40,000 bases of DNA from an uncultured Ignavibacteria bacterium (GCA_963798865.1 CAWCVZ010000004.1:56862-96861); one strand, 5' to 3'; counted from the first letter of the stretch, positions 571-13,845 are shown. Made by a program: numbers and translations. The notes: generated by a model not told the origin, from the sequence alone.

Positions 571-820
571 ATATAACACTGTTGCCGCTAACCGCCGCCC
601 AGAACAGCAATGCAGATTAGAAAGACAACACCAATAATTTAGTCCGCCGCGGCGGAGTATGTAACTTTCATCGTATGCGCCAGCTGCACTTGCCCGCCTC
701 CGGTGGGACAATTTATTTTAGAATGTTACTGCCGAGCAGCAACCTTAGATTTTTTACAAAAGCCCAAAGCCATAATAATGCCGCTTTGAAAACGGCCTCC
801 GGTTGATTTGCTAGTTAGCC
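571..820 (-). other. attC site (belongs to the AKR cassette)
   Basis: atataac at 571-577 and gttagcc at 814-820. The left arm ctgttgccgctaaccgccgcccagaac is shared with the other attC sites. The site lies between the AKR stop (856) and the toxin stop (559). Confidence 0.7.
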
Positions 821-855
821 ATTTAACCACAACAGATTGTGAATGTTTATGAGAA

Positions 856-1812
856 CTAATACCGCGTTCCTGCCGCTGCATCCATCGGAAATGCGTCATT
901 TATACGAGCTAAATCTTCCTCAGTCAGGTTCAAATCAAGTGCACCCAGGTTTTGTTCTAAAAATGTGCGGCGTTTTGTACCCGGAATAGTTACGATATCA
1001 TCTCCCTGTGCCAAAACCCAGGCCAGGGCTAACTGGGCAGGAGTAACATTTTTATCTTTAGCTATCTCGGTAACTCGTTCAAGCAGAACCAGATTTTTGT
1101 TAAAATTTTCTCCTTTGAATCGTGGATTGGTTCGCCGCCAGTCACCTTCATCCAGATCTTCAAACTGCTTAAATCGACCGACTAAAAAACCTCTTCCCAG
1201 AGGACTATACGAGACAAAACTGATTCCTAACTCACCTGTCGTTGCTAAAATATTCTGCTCCGGCTCCCGACTCCATAATGAATATTCGGTTTGCAGTGCA
1301 CTAACCGGATGGACTGCGTGTGCCCTCCGGATAATATCTGGCTTTGCTTCTGACAGACCAATGCAGCGAATTTTACCGGCTTGTATCAGTTCAGCCATAG
1401 CACCGACTGTTTCTTCAATTGGAACTTTTGGATCGACACGGTGTTGATAATACACATCGATATAATCCACCCCCAATCGTTTTAGTGAAGCATCACAAGC
1501 TGAGCGTACATAATAGGGCTGACTATTAAGACCTAAAAATTCCCCCTTTTCATTCCGCATATTACCAAATTTTGTTGCTATAACAACCTTGTCCCGTCGA
1601 TCAGCAATAGCTTTGCCTAATAACATCTCATTTGTCCACGGGCCATATACATCAGCCGTATCAAAAAAATTAACCCCCAGTTCAATAGCCCGATGTATGG
1701 TAGCAATAGATTCAGCTTCTTGAGTTGAACCATAAAACTCCGACATCCCCATACAGCCTAACCCAATGACAGAGATTTCTAAATTACTGTGTCCTAATTT
1801 GTGGTATTTCAT
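856..1812 (-). CDS. Aldo/keto reductase family oxidoreductase (cassette-borne)
   Basis: 318-aa ORF with AKR hallmarks ([38 protein letters not shown]). Bounded by attC boxes at 814-820 and 1856-1862. Confidence 0.9.
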
Positions 1813-2086
1813 TTTTATGTTTCCTATTTTTTTATCATTTCAAAGTCCAAATAGTGGCTAACGGCTTGTTACTAAGGCGTAGCCCAGAACAAGAATGCCG
1901 AATAGAGCCACAACTGCCGAAACCCTGCCTGCCGGCAGGCAGGTACCAAAGCTAACAATTACTAAAAACCCAACGGATAATTCGCAGTCGGCTTGTCCCA
2001 AGGACTCCTATGGAGAGGCACGTGATATTTCCAATAAGTAAAAAGTTATTTTTGAATAGCATCAACAACTTATCAGGAGGTATCAA

Positions 2087-3062
2087 ATGTTTTACACAGG
2101 TATCGATCTTCATAAATTCACTTCTTACTTAACTACCATTGACTCTTCAGGAGCAATTATTAAACAGGAAAACCTGAAAAATGTTGCTCATAACTTCGTT
2201 CAATATTTCAATTCCATTCCGGGTGAACATAAGGCAACAGTTGAATCAACTATGACCTGGTACTGGTTAAATGATCTTCTTTCTTCTATTAACATTCCCC
2301 TGGTCCTTGCTCATGCCAAGTATGTTAAAGCTATTGCATATGCTAAAGTTAAAACCGATAAAGTCGATTCTCATACTCTGGCTCAGCTTCTTCGTATGGA
2401 CTATATCCCTGCTGCTCATAAAATCTCAGCTGAAAACCGTCTTCTCCGGGATGCCCTTCGTGCAAGACTTAAAATAGTTCAGCGCCATACTTCGGTTACT
2501 AATTCTATGCACCTTCTTCTTGCTAAATATAACTATGATTCACCAACTCAGCTGACCGGTATTCCTGAATTTCAGTATCAGCAATTAACTGAAGTTGAAT
2601 CTTTACTAAATGAACAAATGCTCAATCTTGAAAAGCAACTTTATCCTTTTCTTATTCCTAACGATGATATCCAACGTCTGCTCTGGATCCCGGGCATTGG
2701 AAAGATGAATGCTTTTACTATACTTCTGGAAGTTGATGACATCAATCGTTTTCCGGATGTAAAAAACTTCTTCTCTTACTCAAGGCTTACTCCTTCTGCA
2801 CGTAACTCAGGCGGTAAATCTAAACAACGTTCATCCAAAGACGGTAACAAATATCTCAAAGTTGCTTTCTCTGATGCTGCCATTCACGCTGTTCAGTACT
2901 ATCCGGTTATTCGCAAATATCATAGCTCGCTGCTGCAGTAAGAAGAACAAACAAATTGCTAAAACTATTATTGCCAAGGAAATTGCATCAATTGTTTATT
3001 ACGTATTGAAAAATAAATCTGACTTTAACAACAAATTCAAAGGTCAAAGAATTAGATCATAA
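2087..3062 (+). CDS. IS110-family (DEDD) transposase, with an apparent frameshift near 2925-2940
   Basis: N-terminal GIDLHK, VESTMTWYW and KTDKVDSHTLAQL motifs, then the C-terminal IPGIGKMNAFTILLEVDDINRF...SGGKSK module. The reading frame continues in ORF 2862..3062 (KKNKQIAKTIIAKEIASIVYYVLKN). Confidence 0.85.
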
Positions 3063-3230
3063 GAAGTCTTTACAATGGCCGCGTGTAGTAAGCCCCTACG
3101 CCTAACTGATTAGCCAAGCATAATCCTTGCCGCTGGATTGGGAAACTAACACGCTATGCCTATTAAATATCTGGAATCGTATTCTTCATTGAATACAGCC
3201 TTCACTTATCGTGATAGTAAGTCCCTAAAG
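3063..3230 (+). ncRNA. Candidate bridge-RNA-type non-coding region of the IS (hypothesis only)
   Basis: A 168-nt non-coding tail lies between the transposase stop and the IS end, where IS1111-group elements are reported to encode their guide RNA. It contains gcctaac and aggcgtag-like strings (3091-3107) resembling the attC left arm (1856-1885). No fold or covariation was computed. Confidence 0.25.
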
Positions 3231-3392
3231 AGGTTTGGTTTGCCATAGTGCAGCCTCATAGATATTACGGCATTAATTGTTGTTTAAAAGTAGAAGACAG
3301 TATATCAAAGAACTATTTTTTTTACAAAACTTTTTTTGCCAGGGATTTTTATTTTCTTTTTCTACCTATTGACCTTTTACTTATTAAAGAGG

Positions 3393-4022
3393 TTATACCG
3401 TTACTCCTATTAGCTGCTGATGTATCCATTTTTTAGAGAAAGTAATTTTTATCGTAATTGCCAAATACCAAAGCCCAATAAATGGACCAAAATCAATATA
3501 TTCTTCATATGGAGGAATTGGAAAAGAGATTATATTGGTAATTATCATTAAAAGCGAAATTAATATTCCAACAATTGAAAAAATTTTTCCCAATTTAGGA
3601 TGTTGAAAAATACTTACCGCGAATAAAAATGTTCCTAAAAATATATAAACATCCCAGGCAACATCTAATCCATAATGGATATGATTAAATGAATTCCAAA
3701 TCCATATGCTAGATTCTTCAACCAGTTTTGGTTTTGATGACTTAATTGCGAGTTGTACTAAAAACATTTGAGTAAGCAAAGCACCGGCAATAATGTTTGA
3801 GAACAATGCAATTTTAGAGGCAATTGTTTTTTTATAAATTTGAATAAAATGATATAAGCCAGCAGAAGCTAAACTTAGTAAAATTCCCATTGCAGCAGCT
3901 AGAATAACTCCCAAAATTAAATTTGAAATGAATTGTAATAACGGATAAATAATGCTTACAAGAAAACCACAAATAATTCCAATGTTTATCCAATTTTGAA
4001 TTAGTCGATTATCATTATTCAT
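3393..4022 (-). CDS. Multi-pass membrane protein, unknown function (cassette-borne)
   Basis: 209-aa ORF with 5-6 hydrophobic segments. Its start lies 22 nt from the attC box at 4044-4050. About 150 nt of non-coding sequence separate its stop from the attC box at 3237-3243. Confidence 0.65.
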   Translation of the reverse strand: MNNDNRLIQNWINIGIICGFLVSIIYPLLQFISNLILGVILAAAMGILLSLASAGLYHFIQIYKKTIASKIALFSNIIAGALLTQMFLVQLAIKSSKPKLVEESSIWIWNSFNHIHYGLDVAWDVYIFLGTFLFAVSIFQHPKLGKIFSIVGILISLLMIITNIISFPIPPYEEYIDFGPFIGLWYLAITIKITFSKKWIHQQLIGVTV

Positions 4023-12811: not shown

Positions 12812-12821
12812 ACTATTTATT

Positions 12822-13011
12822 GCCTAACGGCGTTGCAACTAAGCCGCAGCCCAGAATAAGACTGCCGAATAGAAGTACAATGCCGATGATTTTAAAAAAT
12901 TTTGTTTAGCAAGAACACCTTGAACAAGTTATTAGAACGAAGGCACAAAACTATATAATTTACAAATTAGCCGACGGAAATATCGCTGTCGGGTTGAGTT
13001 GCTGGTTAGGC
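12822..13011 (-). other. attC site (short variant)
   Basis: gcctaac at 12822-12828 and gttaggc at 13005-13011. It lies 10 nt upstream of the propeller-gene ATG and 12 nt after the stop at 13023. Confidence 0.8.
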
Positions 13012-13022
13012 AATTTTTTATT

Positions 13023-13439
13023 TTAGTGACTCGTCCTAAAACTATCTTTACTTATTACTTCTCCATTGCTAATATCAATGAAATAAAATGAACCCTTGTT
13101 ATCATCAATATAACCAGTTACAACCCAAACTATTTTTACGCCATCTTTATCTCTTGCAGTTGATAATTCAGCAATTATTTTCTCCTTTTTGCCAAGAGTG
13201 ATTCCATTTGATTTAGCAATTGAAATAGCTTCAAGAGAATCAATGTCAAAAGTACAATTTGAAGAATTTGAAATACAATTTGGTATCCATTCAGGGAAAT
13301 GATCTTCTATTATATTTCCTAAACTATCAAGGTACCAAATCCTTGTTATTCGTTGCCAAGGTTTTTCTGGAATAACGAAATCATAATAAATATTATAATG
13401 TAAGAAAGCTCGGAAATATTGATAATTTGTTTTATTCAT
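13023..13439 (-). CDS. Hypothetical protein with a PepSY-like C-terminal region (first cassette, distal ORF)
   Basis: 138-aa ORF. The C-terminus SLEAISIAKSNGI...VKIVWVVTGY...FYFIDISNGEVIS resembles the PepSY fold pattern. It overlaps the upstream ORF by 8 nt (ATGAATAA), which could be coupling or a frameshifted single gene. Confidence 0.5.
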   Translation of the reverse strand: MNKTNYQYFRAFLHYNIYYDFVIPEKPWQRITRIWYLDSLGNIIEDHFPEWIPNCISNSSNCTFDIDSLEAISIAKSNGITLGKKEKIIAELSTARDKDGVKIVWVVTGYIDDNKGSFYFIDISNGEVISKDSFRTSH

Positions 13440-13677
13440 ATTGTAAGTAATCTGGATTGCCAGGGTATAGTCCAGATTTTAGAGAGTCAAATAAAAAATA
13501 TTCTTTATAAATTTTTTCCCCAGTTTTCGATATAAAAACAGAATCTATTAATATTTTAATTGACAGAGGAACAGTAGCTATTCGAATGTCATCACTCTCT
13601 TTACGATTTATTGTAATAGTTTGTGCTTGATTGTTCAATGCTAAAATCAATATTATTAGAATTAGATAATTGTACAT
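13432..13677 (-). CDS. Small secreted protein (first cassette, attI-proximal ORF)
   Basis: 81-aa ORF with an N-terminal signal peptide (YLILIILILALNNQAQT). Its ATG lies 11 nt downstream of the attI GTTAGGC box. Confidence 0.55.
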   Translation of the reverse strand: MYNYLILIILILALNNQAQTITINRKESDDIRIATVPLSIKILIDSVFISKTGEKIYKEYFLFDSLKSGLYPGNPDYLQYE

Positions 13678-13687
13678 TTTTTTAATT

Positions 13688-13845
13688 GCCTAACTAATAC
13701 TTAACCGGAATCGCTTATCACTTATTTTCTGCAATCCCGTTTTTGCTTATCCTAATATCATTAAAATATTATGCTTTTCCAACTAATTGTAACTTTTAAT
13801 TTTATATTAGGATAATCCTTATCTCAATATTATATTTACACCATT
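13688..13845 (-). promoter_or_regulatory. attI region and divergent intI/cassette promoter region
   Basis: gcctaac at 13688-13694 (GTTAGGC on the cassette strand) marks the junction with the first cassette. The remaining 150 bp of AT-rich intergenic DNA up to the intI GTG include the palindrome aggataatcct at 13809-13819. Promoter elements were not mapped. Confidence 0.5.

Follow-up and report, generated by a model that had tools for sequence, protein, structure and literature searches.

Ten long repeats lie beside a tyrosine recombinase gene in the DNA of an uncultured Ignavibacteria bacterium, and the locus raises two questions: whether these repeats are attC recombination sites, and what their extended centres contribute. 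The window analysed here is a stretch of 40,000 nucleotides, for which a preliminary description had proposed an integron in a non-proteobacterial host. The integrase end of the locus is made up as follows.

13846-14814, + strand: intI, integron integrase, 322 aa, GTG start, intact
13688-13845, - strand: attI region, with the crossover box GCCTAAC at 13688-13694 (+), which is GTTAGGC on the cassette strand
13827-13799, - strand: candidate cassette promoter in the attI region, TTGAGA-17-TAAAAT, 10/12 matches, a consensus match only

In a profile search, the intI product scores 423.6 bits against TIGR02249 (cut-off 265) and falls below the cut-off of both XerC (143.7, cut-off 335) and XerD (141.5, cut-off 330). 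These scores favour the integron-integrase model over a grouping with XerC/D, and residues 10–320 align end to end with residues 6–317 of VchIntIA (PDB 2a3v; E=4.6e-84), with single-residue gaps only. The alignment also retains the IntI-specific segment (...KYPNA..F.W.YLFP...) that precedes the catalytic HxxR/Y region. Integrons in Ignavibacteriae are known already, and the nearest IntI loci belong to Ignavibacteriaceae/Ignavibacteriales MAGs, in line with the proposed non-proteobacterial host. The layout is the classical divergent one: IntI is transcribed away from the array, the cassettes are encoded on the - strand and an attC ends each cassette. The repeats run in a single orientation, one per gene or gene group, from the attI box adjoining IntI. 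As had been suspected, the array passes the window edge, with at least four further sites reaching window coordinate -4430; on the 1.74-Mb contig, the interval from C4:52431 to C4:70555 holds at least 14 sites. The locus is thus a genuine chromosomal integron of an Ignavibacteriales bacterium, and the window takes in the 13 kb nearest the integrase in a sedentary array.

All ten sites were found where they had been described, nine of them 189–250 nt long and one split by an IS110 element. They are numbered S1–S10, with coordinates given box to box on the window + strand; pfold denotes the predicted recombinogenic fold probability.

571-820, + strand: attC S1, 250 nt, several GC-rich hairpins in the centre, arms poorly complementary
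1856-1995 plus 3231-3244, + strand: attC S2, 154 nt rejoined, interrupted by an IS110 element, rejoined arms not complementary
1924-1943: 20-nt palindrome of S2, standing where the inner hairpin would be
1996-3230: IS110-family element inside S2, transposase ORF 2087-2941 (NF033542 IS110, 139.5 bits)
4044-4286, + strand: attC S3, 243 nt, intact arms, inner hairpin 4116-4153
4199-4216 and 4244-4267: further modules of S3, a GC-rich hairpin and an arm-complementary block with a local hairpin, respectively
4812-5040, + strand: attC S4, 229 nt, intact arms, inner hairpin at 4884-4925
5358-5601, + strand: attC S5, 244 nt, 12/17 arm pairs, pfold 3e-6
5431-5467 and 5514-5532: modules of S5, the inner hairpin and a GC-rich hairpin, respectively
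6640-6870, + strand: attC S6, 231 nt, inner hairpin 6717-6754, R' box lost
9313-9537, + strand: attC S7, 225 nt, intact arms, inner hairpin 9385-9422
10256-10444, + strand: attC S8, 189 nt, short class, intact arms
11465-11688, + strand: attC S9, 224 nt, long class, intact arms, inner hairpin 11537-11575
12822-13011, + strand: attC S10, 190 nt, short class, intact arms

Both R boxes are present in nine of the ten, the exception being S6, which lacks R'. Full arm complementarity (16–17 of 17 stem pairs) is confined to S3, S4, S7, S8, S9 and S10, while S1, S2 and S5 have mismatched arms. The arms of S5 come from two different alleles, so it is likely a hybrid site; S6, with a degenerate R' box (GTATAGG) and a replaced 5′ arm, is probably dead. 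With four of ten window sites degenerate, part of the array is decaying. The shared arm motifs and central blocks were recovered as repeat families D1–D12, and genome-wide the central modules occur only inside attC-like sites, with no dispersed copies. S7 and S9, already noted as close relatives, share 82% identity over 202 nt (family D4); in the whole-site minimum-free-energy fold of S9 the arm stem forms and its G and T bulge out, and in S7 a local hairpin at 9494–9513 (CCGCCG/CGGCGG) competes with that stem. The inner hairpin of S4 is a second allele, GCCGAAGGTGCGT.../...ACGCACCGAAGGC. The preliminary description was also right that S8 and S10 lack the inner hairpin and that one site, S2, carries a perfect 20-nt palindrome.

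These extra-long sites are an order-wide attC family in Ignavibacteriales, found mainly in two families. The 5′-arm signature occurs in 49 of the 401 genomes of the class (reversed control, 0), including 13 of 23 in the bacterium's own family and 28 of 37 in the second (sister) family. The same arm alleles recur in many genomes, and the attC family is common to integrons whose IntI is only 47–61% identical to that of the window.

To describe the arms, we pooled this genome with 24 related loci (whole set, 121 sites; arm statistics, 119). The AAC/GTT boxes are invariant across the 119 sites, and within the terminal boxes RYYYAAC ... GTTRRRY the TAAC/GTTA positions pair in 98–100% of 117–118 sites. 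Inside them, stems H2–H5 form 16 pairs, 92.3% of them Watson–Crick, most positions show three to five pair types, and H2 alone has 32 distinct alleles. Arms pair better with their own partner (-11.8 kcal/mol) than with swapped arms (-8.1 kcal/mol), and do so in 16 of 18 representatives. A bulged G (117/119 sites) and a bulged T (115/119) stand six base pairs apart with an optional third bulge between them, at positions 16 and 23 counted from the + strand 3′ end, on the arm opposite AAC. Published attC sites have extrahelical bases at G16/(N20)/T23-24 with a 6-bp stem between G and T (PMC5027507), so folding placed both bulges of the R/L-paired arm stem at their canonical positions. Because G16 and T23 bulge on the window + strand, this is the recombinogenic bottom strand, opposite the strand that encodes the cassette genes. 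G.T pairs outnumber A.C pairs in the stems (56 vs 20 over 119 sites), the same direction as in published attCs (1.24 vs 0.39 per site; PMC5027507). The unpaired spacer between R and L, usually 5–6 bases on each arm (PMC5027507), is present but asymmetric, with a conserved 6-nt GRCGTT on the 5′ arm and 2 nt on the 3′ arm.

Taking the boundary at the R' box, we compared the first six bases of each cassette with its own R'' box. The two are perfectly complementary in 75 of 88 cassettes (13.7% for random pairs), while the two boxes of one array site are so in only 18 of 121. This pattern in the boxes places strand exchange at the outer box (AA|C).

What sets the family apart is length. Published attC sites measure 55/57–141 nt with loops of 3 to ~100 nt (PMC5371416, PMC7370490, PMC4889954); for mobile integrons the range is given as 56–141 bp, and for attC sites in general as 57–141 bp (PMC5371416). 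The window sites, at 189–250 nt, far exceed this range (PMC5371416, PMC7370490), and the preliminary description had already called them unusually long. Among the 121 sites, 59 fall at 185–194 nt and 41 at 220–229 nt, two are shorter than 165 nt and the longest is 283 nt, giving two classes with modes at ~189 and ~226 nt and a tail above them. The 37-nt step between the classes is the inner hairpin: 189 nt plus this hairpin yields 226 nt, and a further GC-rich hairpin (~16–22 nt) yields ~244 nt, so the modular build that had been proposed accounts for the sizes. The inner hairpin is 91.6% paired with 10 of 13 pairs altered on both sides, a score attained by 0 of 500 shuffles, and slid controls pair at most 39%. 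On canonical arms, the family departs from other attC sites in its variable terminal structure (VTS), 130–190 nt where 3–100 nt is usual.

The three-way junction that had been suggested for this centre did not emerge. Consensus folding of both strands, with DNA and RNA parameters, recovers nothing beyond the arm stem and a single inner hairpin in the long class, with no third conserved helix in the centre. The linkers are A-rich, unpaired and 35–95 nt long, the short class has no inner helix at all, and the bottom-strand centre is 42% A, 24% T, 20% C and 14% G. The centre does hold segments complementary to each arm, which are predicted to reduce recombinogenic folding. On nearest-neighbour DNA energies only, the modelled probability of pairing between 3′ and 5′ arms is 0.29 with the natural centre vs 0.58 with shuffled centres, and pfold lies below its shuffled-centre value in 37 of 43 sites. 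The competitor of the 3′ arm is concentrated 34–45 nt from the 3′ end, and the natural centre has a like effect on the 5′ arm. These segments show no preference for their own arm allele over other alleles (9/18 and 13/27, one representative per allele), a result that lends no support to selection for the alternative fold.

Could the repeats be something other than attC, a REP- or MITE-like intergenic element that happens to sit beside a tyrosine recombinase? Their length lies outside the published attC range, and a narrow proxy model built from five 58-nt gammaproteobacterial attCs gave no window match, although that model is unable to span such lengths. We rejected this identity as highly improbable, since the structural hallmarks of attC are all at canonical positions; the complementary cassette ends (75/88), the single orientation with one repeat after each gene or gene group from the attI box by a bona fide IntI, and the absence of modules elsewhere in the genome all speak against it as well.

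The role of the centre leaves more room for debate. One reading gives it a second, sequence-specific function besides spacing, as a cassette-strand terminator and/or promoter or as a site for a host or accessory protein. Conservation is higher in the central motifs than at the paired positions of the arms, 74 of 119 sites contain TTGAACAA with no more than one mismatch (16% in shuffled centres), at a fixed ~90 nt from the 3′ end, and the family is kept across the divergent integrases noted above. On the top strand, a hairpin that adjoins the L'' arm and precedes a T-rich stretch is terminator-like in S7 (9513–9494) and S1 (796–780). Against this, terminator-like matches occur in only three of ten sites, stability of the local hairpin slightly favours the bottom strand over the top one (68 vs 43 sites), a promoter scan returned 62 matches where 61.5 were expected, none recurring at one site position, TAATTA, the closest approach to a -10 hexamer, does not end in the invariant T on inspection, TTGAACAA is absent from 38% of sites, and no Rfam family matches; we consider such a function unlikely. 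A functionless centre, dating from an insertion or duplication long ago in a short precursor attC, later embellished with small hairpins and kept because the whole attC family travels with cassettes among Ignavibacteriales genomes and is homogenised by centre-to-centre recombination, is somewhat easier to entertain, if still doubtful. Short relatives consist of these arms plus the terminal block alone (84 nt, G000:C38:54698-54781; 117 nt, L006), direct copies of AATGCCGA can be read flanking the centre, and the modules behave as clean insertions and deletions. The recurrence of identical arm alleles across many genomes and the absence of allele-specific co-evolution of arms with competitors also fit, and the hybrid sites S5, S1 and S2, with arms from different alleles, indicate that centres do recombine. 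Yet pairing in the inner hairpin has been kept through many double changes, which puts at least this module under structural constraint; the length classes vary by only ~±3 nt among genomes whose IntI differs greatly, and the centre has been lost in only 2 of 121 sites, though loss should come easily if it were neutral or costly.

We favour, at a probability of roughly 0.8, a sedentary Ignavibacteriales integron with an order-wide family of extra-long attC sites that combine canonical arms with a long VTS. The portion that the integrase reads is canonical: the R'/R'' boxes, the covarying 16–17-bp stem, the unpaired spacer and the extrahelical G16 and T23. Beyond it, the 130–190-nt VTS, A-rich on the bottom strand, is mostly unpaired, with no more than two hairpin modules, both optional and fixed in position, giving the quantised lengths. 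PMC5027507, citing Loot 2010, describes VTS length as inversely related to recombination from duplex DNA. With so long a loop, cruciform extrusion from duplex DNA should be very unlikely, and recombination would then rely on single-stranded DNA. The conserved arm-complementary segments of the centre are predicted to tie up the arms in hairpins of their own, lowering the recombinogenic share, and loop length and arm trapping together would favour a stable array with slow turnover.

A bolder version, which we hold to be improbable, makes the extra-long attC a bistable single-stranded element. Conserved segments at either end of its centre would serve as built-in "anti-arms", folding each arm into a local hairpin, and the recombinogenic stem would be rare or triggered, with IntI, SSB displacement or a host factor tipping the balance toward the long-range stem. 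The same hairpins might also work on the cassette strand, as terminators of transcription or insulators for each cassette. Were this true, the attC loop would be a regulatory device and not a passive spacer.

How does the favoured integron, with its canonical arms and long VTS, compare with known systems? An "inverted integrase" layout is found in integrons of Treponema, Chlorobi and others. Relatives L012–L016, L019, L022, L030, L040, L041 and L044 carry the same attC family downstream of intI and co-oriented with it, whereas the window integron is divergent and its IntI is only 47–61% identical to theirs. Vibrio cholerae repeats (VCRs) are about 120–130 nt long, while the Ignavibacteriales sites span 189–250 nt in the window, and those of relatives reach 283 nt. 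The Ignavibacteriales sites also differ in their largely unpaired, A-rich loop of 130–190 nt, in lengths quantised by optional hairpin modules, in the asymmetric R/L spacer (6/2 nt), and in their spread over two integron layouts and no fewer than two families of the order. Like VCRs, they form a chromosomal array of host-lineage-specific attC sites that resemble one another, with a long, possibly branched VTS, up to three extrahelical bases and a predicted recombinogenic fold probability that is often very low (PMC5371416, PMC5027507). At the other extreme, a gammaproteobacterial MAG integron (L017), whose IntI is 56% identical, bears attCs of 58 nt that share the arm motif GCGGTCGGCTGG. These short sites and the aadA7 attC share the R boxes and the L''-arm motif GCGGTCGGCT(G/T)G, with 8 nt from R'' to the bulged G and six positions from G to T (PMC5027507); in L017 the T at that position is paired (G.T or A-T), not bulged. 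Their loop is 4 nt (GTAA) instead of 130–190 nt, and AAC lies 9 nt from the position opposite G, where the Ignavibacteriales 5′ arm has 12 nt, so that three spacer positions are paired and another six bulge from just one side.

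The window integrase, IntI, scores 423.6 bits against TIGR02249 (cut-off 265) and far below the cut-offs of the XerC and XerD models, placing it with integron integrases rather than XerC/D, as the preliminary description had proposed. It aligns over its entire length with the crystallised Vibrio integrase VchIntIA (2a3v, E=4.6e-84), and its nearest relatives in public genomes come from Ignavibacteriaceae and Ignavibacteriales MAGs (76–82% identity). The locus lies on a 1.74-Mb contig of the 4.84-Mb genome. The cassette array lies to the left of the attI region, with its ORFs on the − strand, and the repeats between cassettes sit exactly at the ten positions originally read as attC sites (S1–S10).

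Features of the window:
1–559, + strand, Phd/YefM antitoxin and ParE toxin pair (PF02604, PF05016)
571–820, + strand, attC S1
1856–3244, + strand, attC S2
1996–3230, IS110-family element within S2, transposase ORF 2087–2941 (NF033542)
4044–4286, + strand, attC S3
4812–5040, + strand, attC S4
5358–5601, + strand, attC S5
6640–6870, + strand, attC S6
7293–7631, − strand, DprA-like fragment (PF02481), sole in-frame part
9313–9537, + strand, attC S7
9955–10236, − strand, AbiV HEPN fragment (PF18728), sole in-frame part
10256–10444, + strand, attC S8
11465–11688, + strand, attC S9
12822–13011, + strand, attC S10
attI region, 158 bp, left of intI, ending in the box GCCTAAC at 13688–13694
13846–14814, + strand, intI ORF

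The array also runs beyond the window, as anticipated, with at least four additional sites past the left edge, and other members of the long-attC family lie on contigs C1, C9, C38 and C57 of the same genome. A dispersed MITE or REP repeat was dropped as an explanation, since whole-genome BLAST of the nine uninterrupted sites (without S2, split by the insertion sequence) matches attC-like sites only. An Rfam scan of the window returned no family reaching its gathering score. About 400 bp after intI begins a 368-bp tandem repeat that is 96% identical (15225–15892, + strand).

We gathered 121 members of the family from this genome, 15 IntI-linked loci in other genomes and nine genomic stretches belonging to the same class, and aligned their arms to a pair of profile HMMs. 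In 98–100% of sites the TAAC/GTTA cores are paired. At the 16 stem positions beyond the core, 92.3% of pairs are Watson–Crick; most positions show three to five pair types, and the first helix has 32 different alleles. On the + strand, the 3′ arm carries a bulged G 8 nt from the outer R″ box (117/119 sites) and a bulged T six base pairs further inward (115/119), with a third bulged base between them in roughly one in five of the 57 sites checked; numbered from the 3′ end, the bulges correspond to positions 16, 20 and 23/24, in agreement with the published extrahelical positions (PMC5027507). The arms contain 56 G·T pairs against 20 A·C mismatches, an excess in the direction also published for attC (PMC5027507). 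The preliminary description had called for locating extrahelical bases and for confirming the minus-strand orientation as the recombinogenic one. Because of the bulge positions and the G·T/A·C counts, we assign the recombinogenic bottom strand to the window + strand, with the genes on the − strand. These two features are what separate the strands: arm-only energies leave them unseparated, and the predicted probability of the recombinogenic fold (pfold) for whole sites does not differ significantly between bottom and top. Replication orientation by contig GC skew is ambiguous, the trend being positive over 0–360 kb and locally negative over the array.

Published attC sites span 55/57–141 nt, and their loops range from 3 to about 100 nt (PMC5371416, PMC7370490, PMC4889954, PMC5027507). 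Within the family (n=121), 59 sites measure 185–194 nt and 41 measure 220–229 nt; the maximum is 283 nt and only two fall below 165 nt. A gammaproteobacterial locus, L017 (IntI 56% identical), has the same inner L″-arm motif in attCs of 58 nt with a 4-nt loop, and the extra 130–190 nt of the long family are therefore located wholly in the loop. A covariance model built from five of these 58-nt sites gives no match on the long sites, but it is narrow and unable to span 190–250 nt. The 37 nt that separate the two length modes form an inner 13-bp hairpin, in which 91.6% of cells are paired and 10 of 13 pairs are altered on both sides; 0/500 shuffles match its covariation score and slid controls reach at most 39% paired. 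The sites of 243–250 nt owe their length to a second, GC-rich hairpin of ~16–22 nt inserted at GAAAC^GGAACG. In S2, and in one site beyond the left edge of the window, a 20-nt palindrome takes the place of the inner hairpin at the first module position. The R/L spacer is a smaller departure from described attC, since the 5′ arm has a conserved GRCGTT facing just two bases on the 3′ arm. Short members are rare (84 nt at 54698–54781 of contig C38; 117 nt at 4840–4956 of locus L006); besides the arms they retain either a palindrome or the GCCGAATGCGAA block and lack all other central sequence, and direct copies of AATGCCGA flank the centre of long sites. Together, these short members and flanking copies would fit an origin of the centre by ancient insertion or duplication.

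Branched modules had suggested a three-way-junction-type fold. All folding results given here are nearest-neighbour predictions without proteins. Consensus folding, run for each length class on both strands with DNA as well as RNA energies, instead recovers no helix other than the arm stem and inner hairpin. Linkers of 35–95 nt separate the helices, and the remaining centre is 42% A, 24% T, 20% C and 14% G on the bottom strand. Rather than a compact junction, the folding predicts one very large loop that contains between zero and two small hairpins. Natural centres are not predicted to help the arms to pair: they reduce arm-stem folding relative to shuffled centres (median pfold 10^-1.9 versus 10^-0.8; lower in 37/43 sites, p=2e-7). 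This reduction arises in the predictions because of local competition for the arms. For the 3′ arm, the probability of pairing with the 5′ arm is 0.29 when the centre is natural and 0.58 when it is shuffled; the corresponding values for its pairing with the centre are 0.42 and 0.16. Its competitor is concentrated 34–45 nt from the 3′ end and corresponds to the block aaattgccgaatgcgaa singled out in the preliminary description, and the 5′ arm plus the conserved spacer are predicted to fold onto positions 37–66. Across all sites (n=116), anti-arm segments suit their own arm significantly better than the arms of other alleles. This signal of co-evolution is gone when each allele is represented once (9/18 and 13/27), whereas true arms keep their own-partner advantage (16/18). 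We accordingly present the competing hairpins as predicted from conserved complementarity and do not claim that they are under selection. A sigma-70 promoter scan showed no enrichment.

The outer boxes bear on cassette mobility. In an array, the six last bases of each R′ box belong to the following cassette. The six bases that open a cassette are therefore expected to be complementary to the R″ box of that same cassette rather than to that of the host site. This own-end complementarity is perfect in 75 of 88 cassettes, compared with 13.7% of random pairs and 18/121 for the two boxes of one array site. It holds for 6 of 8 window cassettes, S2 (split) and S6 (degenerate) being settled by direct reading of the boxes. 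We regard this as strong indirect evidence that IntI moved these cassettes at AA|C.

The head of the integron is intact, and its distal part is decaying. Six window sites retain intact arms (S3, S4, S7, S8, S9 and S10), S6 has lost its R′ box, and S5, S1 and the split S2 have arms drawn from different alleles. The hybrid arms of S5 and S1 form 12/17 pairs or fewer, with a pfold of 3e-6 for S5. Such hybrids are what would be expected if the long conserved centres of different sites recombined with each other by homology. S5 and S1 are probably products of such events, which would delete the cassettes in between. The IS110-family element entered the 3′ arm of S2 just ahead of the bulged G, and the rejoined arms are consensus-like but not mutually complementary. 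The insertion recalls the IS1111-attC group, whose targets are attC sites. A number of cassette genes are broken, with the AbiV and DprA-like domains present only as fragments, and in the stretch from 6871 to 10255 several cassettes look disrupted in frame. The toxin–antitoxin pair is oriented opposite to all other cassette genes; toxin–antitoxin cassettes of chromosomal integrons are often inverted relative to others.

The 5′-arm signature TAACGRNNTTGNNNNTAANNNGCNGCC occurs in 49 of the 401 genomes sampled from the class, including 13/23 in the window's family and 28/37 in a second family of the same order, and is rare elsewhere; its reversed control matches no genome. A small set of identical 5′-arm alleles, for example TAACGGCGTTGTTTTTAAGCCGCCGCC, recurs across many genomes of these two families (G103, G110, G169, G207, G256, G274, G318, G354, G366, G390 and others), which points to a common pool of cassettes or to a few attC templates being used repeatedly. 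The window integron and its close relatives have the classical divergent layout. In a second layout, the array is downstream of intI and co-oriented with it (loci L012, L013, L014, L016, L019, L022, L030, L040, L041 and L044); here IntI is 47–61% identical to that of the window and the attC family is the same, with near-identical sites such as 12616–12803 of L022 and window S8.

By default, IntegronFinder discards attC sites longer than 200 nt. If this limit applies, the family members of 220–283 nt are thrown out, and the integron and cassette content of Ignavibacteriales, along with surveys based on such tools, would be undercounted. Tuning search tools to the described 55–141 nt range introduces a detection bias of this kind.

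Integrons in Ignavibacteriae are on record, as a mention only, in IntegronFinder 2.0 (PMC9024848), and chromosomal attC sites with long, branched loops are already known (PMC5371416, PMC5027507); the literature searched holds no account of attC sites this long, of the Ignavibacteria family or of its module structure. The predicted arm-trapping hairpins offer a testable hypothesis for how sedentary arrays stay quiet, and the mismatched-arm hybrids show a cost, in that sites are inactivated by the homologous recombination to which long conserved centres are prone. The family can serve as a test of the permissible arm–arm distance and of how loop content tunes folding. Relative to described attC sites it is a natural experiment, in which the integrase-contact features are all at canonical positions and the loop is stretched to 130–190 nt.
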